This document shows positions 3,293 through 46,172 of a stretch of 64,000 bases of DNA, in pieces. Below the pieces are notes generated by a model. The model did no database searches. It had not been told where the DNA came from and saw only the letters and a program-made list of their open reading frames with translations. The DNA comes from Escherichia phage vB_Eco_F27. Every line of letters begins with the position of its first letter. The stretch's first letter is position 1. The translations under genes were made by a program, and so were the position numbers. The stretch lies in sequence record OP870146.1; one strand, written 5' to 3'.

Positions 3293-4255
3293 TTATTTCC
3301 AAGTCAATTCACAAGTCAATTGAAGAAGCATATACATAACATGTAATTCAATATTACTAGCTAGTCCATGAAACTTATTATTTTCACCTGCAATTTCATA
3401 AAGCGAAATAATACTTTTACCTGGTGCGACTTTGTCATAACACTCAGAAACTAATTTATCGATGAACCATGAATAATCAGCGGCATATTTTGGAGCTAAT
3501 GCACGAAGCTGTTTGATATCTTTATTTTTCATTGCTTCTATGACATCATCTACCGTGCCACGATCATTGGTTACAATCGACAAAATACCTGCATCAAGAA
3601 CACCTTTAGACGAGTACTGGTCTAATTGACCAATTGTACGACGAAAGTCCGGGAAGTTCTTTTTAACCAGAGCTGCAACAACTTTCATGTCAGCGATTTC
3701 GATATTTTCGTTCTTACAGATTTCAACCATACGATGAATCATTTTCTTCATCATCGAGATTTTATCTTCTTCGGTTGGACGACCGAATTCGATAACTCGA
3801 CAACGACTACGTAACGGTTCGATAATTCCATCGATGTTGTTGGCAGTAATAATAATAGAACAGTTACTAGAGAATTCTTCCATGAATGTACGAAGGTGTC
3901 GTTGTGATTCAGCAAGGCCACTACGGTCAAATTCATCGATAACGATAACTTTAGGCTTGCCTTCCATTGAGACTGAACGAGCAAATGCAGTTAACGGACC
4001 GCGTACAAAATCAATTTTACAATCAGAACCGTTGACGAACATCATTTCAGCGTTGATATCGTTACATAATGCTTTTGCCACGGTTGTTTTACCGGTACCA
4101 GGAGAAGGAGAGTGTAAAATAATATGAGGAAGTTTTCCTTTAGATACTAAAGACTTGAATGTTTCATGGTCATACGCAGGCAGAATACATTCGTCAATGG
4201 AAGAAGGACGATATTTCTGTTCTAGAATGTGTTCTTTGGAATTGATAGTAATCAT
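3293..4255 (-). CDS. 44: clamp loader ATPase subunit gp44
   Basis: 320 aa; Walker [20 protein letters not shown]-like [11 protein letters not shown] motif; strong match to T4 gp44. Confidence 0.92.
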
Positions 4256-32462: not shown

Positions 32463-32861
32463 TTATTTGTAGGTTTTCATCCAATTCTTGAACAAAGCCG
32501 CGACGTCTTTCTCTTTAACGTTCAGTTTAATGTCCAACATTTTACCGCCCGCTGCTCTCGTTTGACGAATCTTAGCAGTACCGGTTTCACCATTCCACTC
32601 AACATAATATTGCCCAGTGTTCATAGCGATACCGTTGCCAAAGTCTTCGTTATTAGAAGTAGTGAATGCCAACTTCATGGTCTTAGAGACACGGGCCGGC
32701 ATGCCTGTCTGAAGGGCATTACGAACGCGAATAACCTGAGGAGTGGCCTGGGTCAGGTTCTCATTCAGTTCTTCGGTGAACTCTTCAGATTCAAACATCG
32801 CCAAAAGTTCTTTAGATGCAGGAATTACATTCTCTGCGATAAATTCTTTATATGTTTTCAT
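32463..32861 (-). CDS. internal protein-like, with capsid targeting sequence
   Basis: 132 aa starting MKTYKEFIAE, the T4 internal-protein capsid targeting sequence; preceded by a GTTTAC...TGGTATAAT promoter. Confidence 0.6.
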   Translation of the reverse strand: MKTYKEFIAENVIPASKELLAMFESEEFTEELNENLTQATPQVIRVRNALQTGMPARVSKTMKLAFTTSNNEDFGNGIAMNTGQYYVEWNGETGTAKIRQTRAAGGKMLDIKLNVKEKDVAALFKNWMKTYK

Positions 32862-32925
32862 TTTTTGTTTCCTTGTTTGTTTTGATAGAGTAATTATACC
32901 ATATTAATACTTAAGCGTAAACCGT

Positions 32926-33186
32926 TTAAGCTTTACCGCCAGAAATAATTCCGAAGTTGTTAAAATCGTATCCAATATCGTCAACATCTACTTTAGGACT
33001 TACTACAACATAAGCAATTTCACTACGTTTTGCATAGGTGTTTATTTCTTTACCATCACCACCTAAGAAAGAATACCCATTACGTTTTAATGAGCCAAAG
33101 TCTTCCGCATCACCAATGAAAGCTTTAACTTTAAATTTAGGACCTTTGGCATCTGCTTCAACGATAAATTCTTGATACATTTTCAT
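32926..33186 (-). CDS. internal protein-like, with capsid targeting sequence
   Basis: 86 aa starting MKMYQEFIVE. Confidence 0.55.
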   Translation of the reverse strand: MKMYQEFIVEADAKGPKFKVKAFIGDAEDFGSLKRNGYSFLGGDGKEINTYAKRSEIAYVVVSPKVDVDDIGYDFNNFGIISGGKA

Positions 33187-33192
33187 TTTTCC

Positions 33193-33306
33193 TTAGTAAA
33201 TTGATTTACCATAGTATTTGTACCAAGTCGGACGTTGAGCAATTTTTTCATCTAAGCGTGCTTGATTTATCGCAATGGACGCTTCGGACGGGTCATAATT
33301 TCCTCC
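33193..33306 (-). pseudogene. denV: denV (endonuclease V) remnant: start codon plus out-of-frame C-terminal fragment
   Basis: Promoter, RBS GGAGGAAA and ATG ACC CGT (MTR) at 33306 are followed by a stop after 9 codons. The adjacent frame encodes ...[31 protein letters not shown], matching the T4 DenV C-terminus as recalled. Confidence 0.65.
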
Positions 33307-33355
33307 AAGTAGTTGATGAATGTATAGTATCAAAACCCTTGGAGGAAGTAAACAA

Positions 33356-33637
33356 CTATTTTTCTGAAGCGCCTGAAATATATTTTTCAAGACGTTGTTT
33401 CATTAAAGAGCCGTTCTTAGCGATTTCTTCCGGTTTATCGCACATACGCAACAAGGCTTCGAGCTTAACGATATCGCTGGTACGTTCAAATTTGCGAGTA
33501 TCTATCTTACTAGCAAGTTCAGAAATACGTGCTAATAGACTTTCGGCTTCAACCAAAGCTGCACCTAGCTTAGTTGCAAATGTGTCAGTAGCTTCGTTAA
33601 GAATAGATTCTGATAAAAATTCACTATATGTTTTCAT
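33356..33637 (-). CDS. internal protein-like, with capsid targeting sequence (ipIII/ipII position)
   Basis: 93 aa from [10 protein letters not shown]; lies directly downstream of e. Confidence 0.6.
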
Positions 33638-34122
33638 ATATACGCTTTCCAAGTTCCTGTTTTAAATGTTGAGATTACGCGTTTCGCGCGATTAGGTGTC
33701 TGACGATACCATTTAGATTGGGCTAGATTTACTGCCGCTTCGTCCCAACGTTTCTGTTGAAGCATACGAAGAGAATTAGTAAAACCGGCAACGCCTGCTA
33801 CGCCCATTTGGAAGACCATATTGACCAATGCACATCGACGAACAGCATCTAAAGAATCATATACCGGTTTAAGTTTAGCATTACCCAAGATTCCGCGAAC
33901 GGCTTTATCAACGTCTTCATTAAATAGCTTTTCAGCCTCATCAAGGGTAATTGTACCGTTGCATTTACGACCGATCATTCTGTCAAGTTCAGCTTTAGCT
34001 ACGGCTAAAGAAGGGTTCTTTGTTACTAAATGGCCTATGCCAATCGTCCAAAAGCCTTCAGTGTCTTTGTATAAAGTCAGTCTAAGACCTTCGTCATTAC
34101 GAAGCATTTCAAATATATTCAT
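33634..34122 (-). CDS. e: lysozyme (endolysin)
   Basis: [32 protein letters not shown]... 162 aa, near-identical to T4 lysozyme; start set to the ATG at 34122. Confidence 0.93.
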
Positions 34123-34156
34123 AATACCTCCCACGTTTATAGGAGGTATTTATTAC

Positions 34157-41411: not shown

Positions 41412-42038
41412 TTACTTACGAGTTTTTGCATATTGAGCAGCGTCAGCAGCCAAACGACCTGCCTGACGAAGTTTTTCTTTAATCGCATCGTGAAGTGGTT
41501 GAGTGTACTTCAAACCTTCGATAGTCAAATAAAGACGATAAAGGTCCGGGGTATCAAGGTTGTTGATATGTTGGCCATTACGAAGAATATTGAATTCACG
41601 AACGAGTGAAGATGTATCGGATTCAATATCACGAACAAGCGAAGATAGTTGTTTATATTTTTTTTCCAGACTAGAAGTATCAAACTTAAGAGCAGGAGCT
41701 TTAGGAGTTGCTTTTACTTCAGGCTTAGGCTCAGGTTTTGCTATTGCTTTAGGGGTCGCAGGTTTAGGAATGGAAGGAGTAGGTTTTACTTTAGGCGAAC
41801 CCGATTTAGCAGAAACACCACCACTAACAATATCTTTGAATGCTTTAGAAGCTCTGTAATATTCTTTTTGGCTGGAAGTGTCGATACCGTACATGGCTTG
41901 AACGTTTTTGAAAAACTCTGTACTAGTTTTTGTACCAGAAATAGCATCGTAAGCAGCTTGCCATTTCTCTTTTGTCATACGTACACCGGCTTCGGTGATT
42001 ACTTCCGTTTCGGCTAAAAATTCATTAAAAGTATACAT
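41412..42038 (-). CDS. internal protein-like, capsid targeting sequence variant and Pro/Lys-rich linker
   Basis: 208 aa starting MYTFNEFLAE; TATAAATA late-promoter consensus on the minus strand at 42074-42081. Confidence 0.5.
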   Translation of the reverse strand: MYTFNEFLAETEVITEAGVRMTKEKWQAAYDAISGTKTSTEFFKNVQAMYGIDTSSQKEYYRASKAFKDIVSGGVSAKSGSPKVKPTPSIPKPATPKAIAKPEPKPEVKATPKAPALKFDTSSLEKKYKQLSSLVRDIESDTSSLVREFNILRNGQHINNLDTPDLYRLYLTIEGLKYTQPLHDAIKEKLRQAGRLAADAAQYAKTRK

Positions 42039-42073: not shown

Positions 42074-42081
42074 TATTTATA
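42074..42081 (-). promoter_or_regulatory. late promoter consensus TATAAATA
   Basis: Exact match on the minus strand about 36 nt upstream of the ATG at 42038. Confidence 0.5.
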
Positions 42082-42414: not shown

Positions 42415-42759
42415 TTATTTTGGCATATCATCAATTTGCTCTCGACGCCGACGCCATAGATTAATCGCTTCATAAACACATTCTGCGTTTGGTATATGAC
42501 GGCAATAATATAATGATTCGCGTTTCTGGAATCGATGTTGCAATGGGATTTCGTTTAAAAGGTCTTTACGGTCAAAGTATTCAAAACTAGTTAACCCGGA
42601 ACGGTTTTTAATGAACTTCCAATGACCAAATTCATTTTGAACATAGATGTAATCTGCATGTTGGTATAACAAATTAATCAATCGGTCTGAAATAACTGTA
42701 TCATGTTCGTTAAAATAAAACGTTAAATCATGAACTACTAAGTAAACATTACCTTTCAT
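42415..42759 (-). CDS. hypothetical protein inside the tRNA region
   Basis: 114 aa from the ATG at 42759 (MKGNVYLVVHDL...) after GAGGAAAA. Confidence 0.5.
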   Translation of the reverse strand: MKGNVYLVVHDLTFYFNEHDTVISDRLINLLYQHADYIYVQNEFGHWKFIKNRSGLTSFEYFDRKDLLNEIPLQHRFQKRESLYYCRHIPNAECVYEAINLWRRRREQIDDMPK

Positions 42760-42777
42760 ATTTTCCTCACTTAAAAT

Positions 42778-42854
<77 letters not shown>

Positions 42855-43776: not shown

Positions 43777-43962
43777 TTACTCACCTTTTGCAATTTTATC
43801 CATAACGATAGCGATTAAGCCGATTAGAAATGCTACTACCAATGAGATAGAGTTTTCAGTTGTTGTCAGTAGTCCACAAATGAATCCTACAAACATCGAA
43901 AAACTAAAAGCCATTGAAGCAATTACTACAGCAACATTACGAATCAGTTCAGCGCGTTTCAT
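43777..43962 (-). CDS. hypothetical small membrane protein
   Basis: ATG at 43962 (MKRAELIRNVAVVIASMAF...) after GGAGAAA. Confidence 0.45.
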   Translation of the reverse strand: MKRAELIRNVAVVIASMAFSFSMFVGFICGLLTTTENSISLVVAFLIGLIAIVMDKIAKGE

Positions 43963-44031
43963 TTTATTTCTCCATTTACTCATTTGTTTTGATAGGACTA
44001 CTATAACATATCCCTATAGGCTTGTATACCT

Positions 44032-44295
44032 TTATTTCAAATATATTGCGTATTTTTTATAGCCACCAGGCTCGTGTCGAAGACCTTTATCATTCGCAAA
44101 ACGTTGAATGTTATTGAACTGATTTTCATCAAGTTCGGATGTGTCAAATATGAAAAAGTTTCGTTTGTTGCCAAGCGTGATATGCGGAGTTAAGTCAATG
44201 TTATACAAATTAAGAATATCAGCAATAACCTGATTGACCGCTTTGTTAATTTTCACACCAGACGATTCTGAGATGAATTCGTTGAAAGTTTTCAT
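44032..44295 (-). CDS. internal protein-like, with capsid targeting sequence (ipI locus)
   Basis: 87 aa from MKTFNEFISE. Confidence 0.55.
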   Translation of the reverse strand: MKTFNEFISESSGVKINKAVNQVIADILNLYNIDLTPHITLGNKRNFFIFDTSELDENQFNNIQRFANDKGLRHEPGGYKKYAIYLK

Positions 44296-44356
44296 TTTAG
44301 GTTCCATTTGGTTGTTTTGATAGGACTACTATAACATAATCCTATCGTGTTGTAAA

Positions 44357-44668
44357 TTATTTTATGCCTTTAGAAGAAATGGTGTTTTGGCGTTTGGTCC
44401 CTGTTTGTGAAAAATCGTGGTTATCGATTTGGTCGACTCGCATAACACCAAATGCAGATTTAATTTTAGCCTTTGAACCTTTTTTGATACTAATTATCAT
44501 ATAAGTATCATTTTTCTTATATTCGAAATTTGTTACTTCAACGCCTTGATTAGAAATTGACTTAATAATAGCATTAGCGTATTCATCATCTAACGGACCG
44601 GTGGTGTTAATAATAAAATTTTTATCGGCTTTAGTAGCTTCAGCGATAAACTCTTGATAAGTTTTCAT
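44357..44668 (-). CDS. internal protein-like, with canonical capsid targeting sequence (ipI locus)
   Basis: 103 aa from MKTYQEFIAE, identical to the T4 internal-protein capsid targeting sequence; the rest of the protein does not match T4 IPI as I recall it. Confidence 0.6.
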   Translation of the reverse strand: MKTYQEFIAEATKADKNFIINTTGPLDDEYANAIIKSISNQGVEVTNFEYKKNDTYMIISIKKGSKAKIKSAFGVMRVDQIDNHDFSQTGTKRQNTISSKGIK

Positions 44669-44747
44669 TTGTTTTTTCCGTTTGGTTTGAGATTTGATAG
44701 GATGATAGTAACACACCATCATCCTTATGTAAACTGTTTTGTGAAAA

Positions 44748-45433
<686 letters not shown>

Positions 45434-45437
45434 TTTA

Positions 45438-46172
45438 TTACCTTAAGATTGTTTCAATTTTAGAATAAAGCTCTTCTAAAGAGCCGTCGTTTGTAATAAC
45501 TAAATCGCCTTCTTCAATAGGCAACCCAGCTTCTGTAATATGTTTATCAGTGGATTCCGTACCAGAGCGAACCACATGAATAACTGTAGCACCCATCGCT
45601 CTAGCGGTTTCCATTTCATGGACTTGGCGTGTATCGGTTACAACATAGTAATCGAAATCACTTCCAATATAATCCATATAGTTTAATGCAAAAAGCTTAA
45701 CCCAATACATACGGTCAAATAAATTAACGACAACATCCGTACCGAGGGCTTGCATAAGACGGCGGATTGACCATGTGTCGTTGATATTATTTATAGCTTC
45801 ACGCAGGGCTTCATATGGTTTAATATCTAGATATGAATACCCACCTTCTAATGATGATAATACTTTAACATTATTAATTGGTAAATATTGACTTTGTAAA
45901 TAAATTAGCGCTTCTTCCAATAATTCAATAACATCCAACTTATTGATATTTAATGGTGTTTCACGGTCATATCCGACACCTTCAAAGTATTCGTATTTCA
46001 ACTCTGTGAATACATCAGGATCTTCAGCATGTTTACGTCCCCAGGCTATTGCTAGAGCGTCTTTAATCGGATATGCCAATTGGTATTTTACGGATTTAAA
46101 GTTTGAATTGATGTAATCAGCAGTAGTGTCTTTACCACTACGTTTGATGCCGCTTAAAAAGATTAGCTCCAT
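45438..46172 (-). CDS. 1: deoxynucleoside monophosphate kinase gp1
   Basis: 244 aa; IFLSGIKRSGKDTTADYI P-loop, ...DRMYWVKLFALNY..., ...HITEAGLPIEEGDLVITNDGSLEEL. Confidence 0.9.
   Translation of the reverse strand: MELIFLSGIKRSGKDTTADYINSNFKSVKYQLAYPIKDALAIAWGRKHAEDPDVFTELKYEYFEGVGYDRETPLNINKLDVIELLEEALIYLQSQYLPINNVKVLSSLEGGYSYLDIKPYEALREAINNINDTWSIRRLMQALGTDVVVNLFDRMYWVKLFALNYMDYIGSDFDYYVVTDTRQVHEMETARAMGATVIHVVRSGTESTDKHITEAGLPIEEGDLVITNDGSLEELYSKIETILR

Follow-up and report, generated by a model that had tools for sequence, protein, structure and literature searches.

Among the closest described counterparts of the genes considered here are the internal proteins of phage T4, of which Ip1, Ip2 and Ip3 inhibit a single GmrSD Type IV restriction enzyme apiece, a different one in each case, with no cross-protection between them (PMC12373910). 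Ip2 and Ip3, whose targets are the GmrSD enzymes from ECOR21 and ECOR17, are small, non-essential, injected proteins that carry a capsid targeting sequence (CTS) and have one defence target each. T4-like phages have two variable internal protein (IP) loci: e-vs.8, and the ipI locus between 57B and trna.4, which holds IPI in T4 and the genes ip5-ip9-ip7-ip8, in that order, in RB15. This work concerns two adjacent open reading frames (ORFs), here called ORF A and ORF B, at the ipI locus of Escherichia phage vB_Eco_F27 (record OP870146.1), within an analysed stretch of 64 kb (the window, on which all positions are numbered). The explanation that we favour, with a probability of about 0.6, is that they are Ip7 and Ip9 alleles of a hyperplastic Mosigvirus ipI locus, injected into the cell and directed against defences of the host.

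An ORF scan of the region, which is transcribed on the minus strand, places ORF A (103 residues) at 44357-44668 and ORF B (87 residues) at 44032-44295, directly downstream of 57B (44748-45203). The latter is a homologue of the Acb1 anti-CBASS phosphodiesterase, matching the Pfam family PF23474 at 1.3e-58 over the whole model (1-144/144; 197 bits, for a cut-off of 27), and forms a conserved upstream flank that is syntenic with 57B of RB69 and T4. On the other side, the downstream anchor of the locus is a homologue of trna.4 (43777-43983), a small membrane protein that matches phrog_1692 at 2e-32 and is syntenic with its T4 and RB69 counterparts; two more conserved ORFs come after it. It is this synteny that identifies the interval as the ipI locus. 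Its DNA is 98% identical to that of Escherichia phages AV118, G2469 and mogra, and its flanks are about 95% identical to those of RB69; these records are classed as Mosigvirus.

Both ORFs belong to families that already have names. ORF A matches phrog_2667 (‘internal head protein’) at 2e-38 over positions 1-101 of 101, and is 96% identical to RB69ORF156c, 99% to mogra_128 (‘internal head protein 7’), 67% to RB15 Ip7 and 66% to the T2 gene. ORF B matches phrog_7673 (also ‘internal head protein’) at 7e-49; its counterpart in mogra is mogra_129, annotated as ‘Ip9 putative internal head protein’, it is 100% identical in phages TH58 and ECO111 5-P, and its identity to RB15 Ip9 is 71% by tblastn and 74% in alignment. 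In addition, tblastn finds relatives of Ip7 in 282 phage records and of Ip9 in 199, with 26 in each case at least 90-95% identical. Given the named alleles, the PHROG families and the number of records, these are known genes: judged by sequence, ORF A is an Ip7 and ORF B an Ip9, both widely sequenced; our search of the literature gave no paper pairing the name Ip7 or Ip9 with phage or bacteriophage and ‘internal’. Reviews and later papers credit Repoila and colleagues, in 1994, with describing the CTS-bearing alleles. Scans of both ORFs against Pfam and NCBIfam gave nothing meaningful, and profile searches against the PDB gave matches at chance level only (9lkj, E 0.075, being the best, and DARPins for Ip7). 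The weak match of the Ip9 family, 9lkj chain A (‘Phage protein’, 79 residues), starts with MKTFNIIVSES, a sequence that recalls a degenerate CTS.

The likeness to RB15 extends over the full length of both families, and to the CTS, the size and the location between 57B and trna.4. The order here, however, is ip7-ip9, and these are Mosigvirus alleles, residing in arabinosylated-cytosine DNA (PMC13390438), unlike the glucosylated-cytosine DNA in which the RB15 alleles are found. A protein annotated as ‘ip7 protein’ in Escherichia phage OLB35 (P0017, 77 residues) is an in-frame chimera, in which an Ip7-like N-terminal part (ending in KGSKAKIKSSF) is followed by the C-terminal 32 residues of Ip9 (DENQFNNIQRFANDKGLRHEPGGYKKYAIYLK), and is the product to be expected if neighbouring ip7 and ip9 genes, arranged as they are in the window, were fused by a deletion.

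Each of the two proteins starts with a CTS. The N-terminus of ORF A is MKTYQEFIAEATKAD, with the CTS MKTYQEFIAE as residues 1-10 (codons 44639-44668), and that of ORF B is MKTFNEFISESSGVK, with the CTS MKTFNEFISE, again residues 1-10 (codons 44266-44295). Six matches to the motif M[KY][TM][YF]xEF[ILV]xE are found when the window is translated in six frames, all of them at the beginning of ORFs on the minus strand, and 200 shuffles have none. In both proteins the CTS is closed by a motif of the L/I-x-E type recognised by gp21, I-A-E10 in ORF A and I-S-E10 in ORF B, and a cut after E10 is predicted to leave mature proteins of 93 residues (isoelectric point, pI, 9.5) and 77 residues (pI 9.0), respectively; ORF B has a second such motif, L-D-E at residue 57, within its folded domain. 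Homologues of Ip7 keep the complete 10-residue CTS and its I-x-E even when they are only about 40% identical, all aligned relatives of Ip7 having a CTS and those examined coming from T4-like phages, at either IP locus. CTS-bearing homologues of Ip9 still keep both at 34-36% identity, whereas the Ip9 homologues of non-T4 phages have no CTS, which argues that selection maintains the CTS in phages with a T4-type head. The preliminary description of this DNA, made from its letters, had placed two CTS-bearing genes directly after 57B (Acb1), and its coordinates, lengths, N-termini and targeting sequences were all right.

An in-frame ATG four codons upstream of the start of ORF B (44296-44307, giving MEPK-MKTF...) would yield a protein of 91 residues, and the ipI annotation of RB69 uses the equivalent of this upstream start. 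Since the MKT start puts the CTS at the very N-terminus and has a GGA some 9 nt upstream, annotations of the longer type are probably mis-started.

The resemblance to T4 IPI, which inhibits the GmrSD enzyme of strain CT596, is one of position and design. IPI shares the locus, the N-terminal targeting signal and an I-x-E motif, and its mature form, IPI*, has a similar size (76 residues, compared to 77 and 93) and a pI of 9.0. The motif of IPI is I-T-E at residue 19, and the published IPI* of 76 residues is what a cut there would leave (PMC3012670), whereas the cuts predicted for ORF A and ORF B fall after residue 10. By BLASTP, only residues 1-12 or 1-14 of ORF A and ORF B align with T4 IPI, and in a multiple alignment, where RB69 IPI falls in with T4 IPI and apart from both ORFs, their mature regions have no similarity to it. 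The fold of IPI*, two beta sheets with flanking terminal helices (PMC3012670), has no obvious match to the models of the two proteins when compared by description. The AlphaFold2 model of ORF B (predicted local distance difference test score, pLDDT, 85.5) has a CTS helix followed by an alpha-beta-beta-alpha-beta-beta domain; in that of ORF A (pLDDT 78.6), residues 16-81 form a beta-alpha-beta-beta-alpha-beta core, to which is added a disordered or low-confidence tail that carries a conserved R-x-N-T motif. Mature Ip7 and Ip9 are thus predicted to be small, basic and generic alpha+beta domains. A pairwise BLAST hint, with the motif NF-I--T--LD, raised the idea that Ip7 and Ip9 are distant paralogues; it was rejected, as nothing but the 12-residue CTS region aligned when the profiles of the two families were compared.

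No homologue of IPI turns up in the 64-kb window by tblastn with the T4 protein, so the phage appears to be without IPI at both of the IP loci that the window contains. The preliminary description had held the two ORFs to be unlike T4 IPI, naming high identity over the mature region as what would refute this, and none was seen; it had also suggested that they may be alternative injected anti-defence alleles of a polymorphic site, of which the assignment to the locus is borne out by the synteny with T4 and RB69 and by the varied contents of the locus in relatives. Taken as a whole, its interpretation is partly supported.

Comparison with relatives shows where the exchanges begin and end. Against RB69, homology at 95% runs from 45275 down to 44269, nine codons into ORF B, and resumes at 44029, in the -35 element of the third promoter cassette described below, such that only the mature-domain codons (44030-44268, minus strand) are swapped, for Ip9 here and for IPI in RB69. 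Against an IMG/VR genome, L010, whose 57B is 99% identical, homology ends at 44728 and resumes at 44047. The full ip7-ip9 segment is present in 22 of 154 related phage records; most of the 154 share only 44646-44760, that is, the end of 57B, the cassette and about eight CTS codons, and in those IPI or a ‘nuclease inhibitor’ is annotated right after 57B. In 33 IMG/VR loci, from none to three CTS genes lie between 57B and trna.4, with mature domains that fall into more than 12 clusters without detectable similarity to one another. By the breakpoints against RB69, L010 and the 154 records, cassette exchange has its conserved anchors in the CTS codons and in the cassettes, the CTS being a second recombination anchor since the 5′ breakpoint against RB69 lies within its codons. 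In L010 (IMGVR_UViG_3300030021_000002, about 3950-4100) 57B runs straight to trna.4 with no IP gene between them; the emptiness of the locus in so close a relative makes the ip genes appear dispensable.

The cassettes themselves lie upstream of ORF A (44699-44733), of ORF B (44319-44356) and of trna.4 (43992-44028, in the conserved downstream flank), all on the minus strand. The promoter of ORF A is TTTACA-N17-TACTAT, that of ORF B TTTACA-N17-TATAGT (10 of 12 consensus positions) and that of trna.4 TATACA-N17-TATAGT, each with an extended TG and each overlapping a hairpin. The hairpin of ORF A has 12 bp (44699-44725; -15.7 kcal/mol, z -3.1) and overlaps the -10 element, the one of ORF B has 11 bp (44319-44346; -14.6 kcal/mol, z -3.8, equalled in none of 200 shuffles), and that of trna.4 is weaker (z -1.1). 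All three intergenic regions can be aligned with one another, and the regions upstream of ORF B and trna.4 share a direct repeat of 43 nt at 88% identity. These features fit the PeSL cassettes, pairs of an early promoter and a stem-loop (Arbiol 2010; Comeau 2014, PMC4122927), for which the published PST/T4-type consensus is TTTACW-N17-TAYWAT with AGNA-loop-TCNT stems; the -10 hexamers TACTAT, TATAGT and TATAGT are each counted as one position off TAYWAT. As in PeSLs, promoters of the TTTACA-N17-TAYAGT type and AGGA...TCCT stems stand between small accessory genes, and breakpoints of indels and replacements coincide with the cassettes, a parallel with the T4 IP locus to which PMC4122927 itself points as an earlier observation. 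The 5′ breakpoint of the exchange with RB69, however, lies in the CTS codons and not in a PeSL. Promoter, overlapping stem-loop and position at an indel boundary are all present in the sequence; promoter and terminator activity is predicted.

These observations of gene structure, family identity, breakpoints and predicted folds fit a mechanism modelled on T4 Ip2 and Ip3, to which ORF A and ORF B are likened by description and which differ from them in being encoded at the other IP locus, e-vs.8. Packaging, cleavage and injection are steps that we infer from T4 biology. The 10-residue CTS would steer each protein into the scaffold core of the prohead, where the prohead protease gp21 would cut it off after I-x-E10; the small basic mature domains, of 93 and 77 residues, would be packaged along with the DNA and enter the cell upon infection, and there each would bind and neutralise a specific host defence protein ahead of phage gene expression. 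The exchangeable unit would consist of an early promoter with its stem-loop, the CTS codons, a variable mature domain and the next promoter and stem-loop, and recombination in the CTS codons and the cassettes would swap mature domains between phages or delete them. By analogy with T4 it is very probable that the two proteins travel in the head, are processed there and enter the cell with the DNA. That Ip7 and Ip9 then neutralise a specific host defence has odds only a little better than even, and that this target is an enzyme of the GmrSD type is possible but rather doubtful.

The last point amounts to a narrower reading, in which Ip7 and Ip9 would be inhibitors of GmrSD-family Type IV enzymes, analogues of IPI tuned to the variants that attack arabinosylated Mosigvirus DNA, and which we regard as tentative. 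In its favour, each of the three T4 internal proteins so far characterised blocks a GmrSD enzyme of its own (PMC12373910), Ip9 fills the exact slot of IPI in RB69 while the window has no IPI, and Mosigvirus DNA, with its arabinosylated cytosines in place of glucosyl-hydroxymethylcytosine, is cut by enzymes of this very family (PMC13390438; PMC6024577). Even so, when ip4-10 of T4-like phages were assayed with further GmrSD variants no reproducible inhibition was found, and an apparent effect of ip7 on CLS_011 did not repeat (PMC12373910, including its Suppl. Fig. 9). This weighs against our favoured explanation as well as against its GmrSD version, although those assays were made with T-even phages and, presumably, with Tequatrovirus alleles only some 66-72% identical to the present ones, and their negative outcome does not extend to the alleles seen here in the phage that carries them. 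A further point against the GmrSD reading is that the Ip9 domain has homologues in siphoviruses whose DNA, in the data examined, has no recorded modification. The same lack of a target in the published screen (PMC12373910) could be expected if Ip7 and Ip9 were structural cargo, basic proteins that neutralise the charge of the DNA or aid its packaging or ejection without any specific host target, and their pI values, together with the roughly 1000 internal protein molecules in the T4 head whose lysines touch DNA phosphates (PMC3012670), are consistent with it. However, the genes appear dispensable, the locus being empty in L010, unrelated folds share the same slot, CTS-less Ip9 domains exist in phages lacking a T4-type head, and T4 IPI* has a specific target in spite of a similar pI (9.0), all of which makes mere cargo improbable.

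Expression also has to be considered. Each gene has its own early promoter of the sigma-70 type, and no copy of the late promoter TATAAATA stands directly upstream of ORF A or ORF B, the nearest on the same strand being inside gene 1, which means that synthesis of Ip7 and Ip9 at the time of head assembly would need read-through or lasting early or middle transcription. This, too, counts against injection, and is what one would expect of ordinary early cytoplasmic proteins that are never packaged and whose N-terminal motif is a relic of cassette recombination. A relic, however, would hardly be kept with its I-x-E in distant homologues of Ip7 and Ip9 and be absent from the non-T4 homologues of Ip9, and we give such an origin very little credence. 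Injected, host-directed Ip7 and Ip9 therefore remain our preferred explanation. Its weight is modest, as two named but uncharacterised alleles are re-identified at a classic polymorphic locus, but since the 2025 result on Ip1, Ip2 and Ip3 each orphan internal protein is a ready probe for a host defence that has not been assigned. A Mosigvirus with Ip7 and Ip9 and without IPI is a natural test case on arabinosylated DNA, for which L010 offers a natural empty-locus control in functional tests, and the clean breakpoints in CTS codons and cassettes illustrate how injected effectors are swapped.

The Ip9 domain also has a life outside T4-like phages. Relatives of 72-74 residues, without a CTS, are found in two siphoviruses, SHAK7858 (44.5 kb, Kagunavirus-like) and the Seuratvirus KS_S4, and in both genomes they sit among small genes adjoining replication and regulatory genes, a setting that suggests that the domain works without a capsid. 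In Kuttervirus allotria, a conserved protein of 964 residues has a C-terminal domain related to Ip9 (31% identity; phrog_7673 at 2.9e-8), which is a variable C-terminal addition since most homologues of the large protein end at about residues 863-881. The related domain spans residues 887-945 approximately, and the carriers outside T4-like phages lie at 3007-3225 in L005, 2992-3216 in L006 and 340-3234 in L007. An exhaustive search of 1.84 billion representatives with Ip9 gave only 12 short relatives, with and without a CTS, and a scan of bacterial genomes gave a single homologue of the CTS-less SHAK7858 protein, on a 6-kb contig of a metagenome-assembled genome; the domain thus seems to be found in phages only. 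Together, this suggests that Ip9 is a domain limited to phages that does its work inside the host cell and that came to be delivered by the capsid when it was fused to a CTS. It is hard to refrain from speculating, with still less confidence than for a GmrSD target, that its mature domain is a mobile host-directed effector delivered differently by each lineage (by CTS-mediated injection, without a CTS in siphoviruses, or as the C-terminal domain of a Kuttervirus protein of about 960 residues), which in replacing IPI here could counter a defence not yet tied to internal proteins, for instance one that senses arabinosylated or hypermodified DNA.

Upstream of 57B the window continues with 57A (45203-45433) and gene 1 (45438-46172), both called by the ORF scan on the minus strand. 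A second internal-protein cluster, with three CTS-initiated ORFs, is located at 32463-33637 (minus), between the lysozyme gene e (33634-34134), which it directly follows, and a vs.8-like gene on its downstream side. The cluster comprises an ORF of 93 residues that resembles RB15 Ip5 (33356-33637; phrog_3499), one of 86 residues that starts with MKMYQEFIVE (32926-33186), and one of 132 residues (32463-32861; phrog_15461, ‘unknown function’). No relative of T4 IPI was seen in this cluster, in which Ip2 and Ip3 were not searched for. Close to the tRNA genes, the start of an ORF of 130 residues (42415-42807) was called mechanically at a TTG, so that it overlaps a tRNA-Arg (42778-42854); its true start is probably the internal MKGNVYL, giving 114 residues as in its relatives. 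Nearby, a minus-strand ORF of 208 residues (41412-42038; phrog_2280, ‘unknown function’) has the CTS-like start MYTFNEFLAE, a Pro/Lys-rich, TonB-like central linker, and the T4 late-promoter motif TATAAATA at 42074-42081, about 36 nt upstream of its start, and may be an unannotated capsid-targeted protein; its relative in L010 is shorter, at 126 residues.
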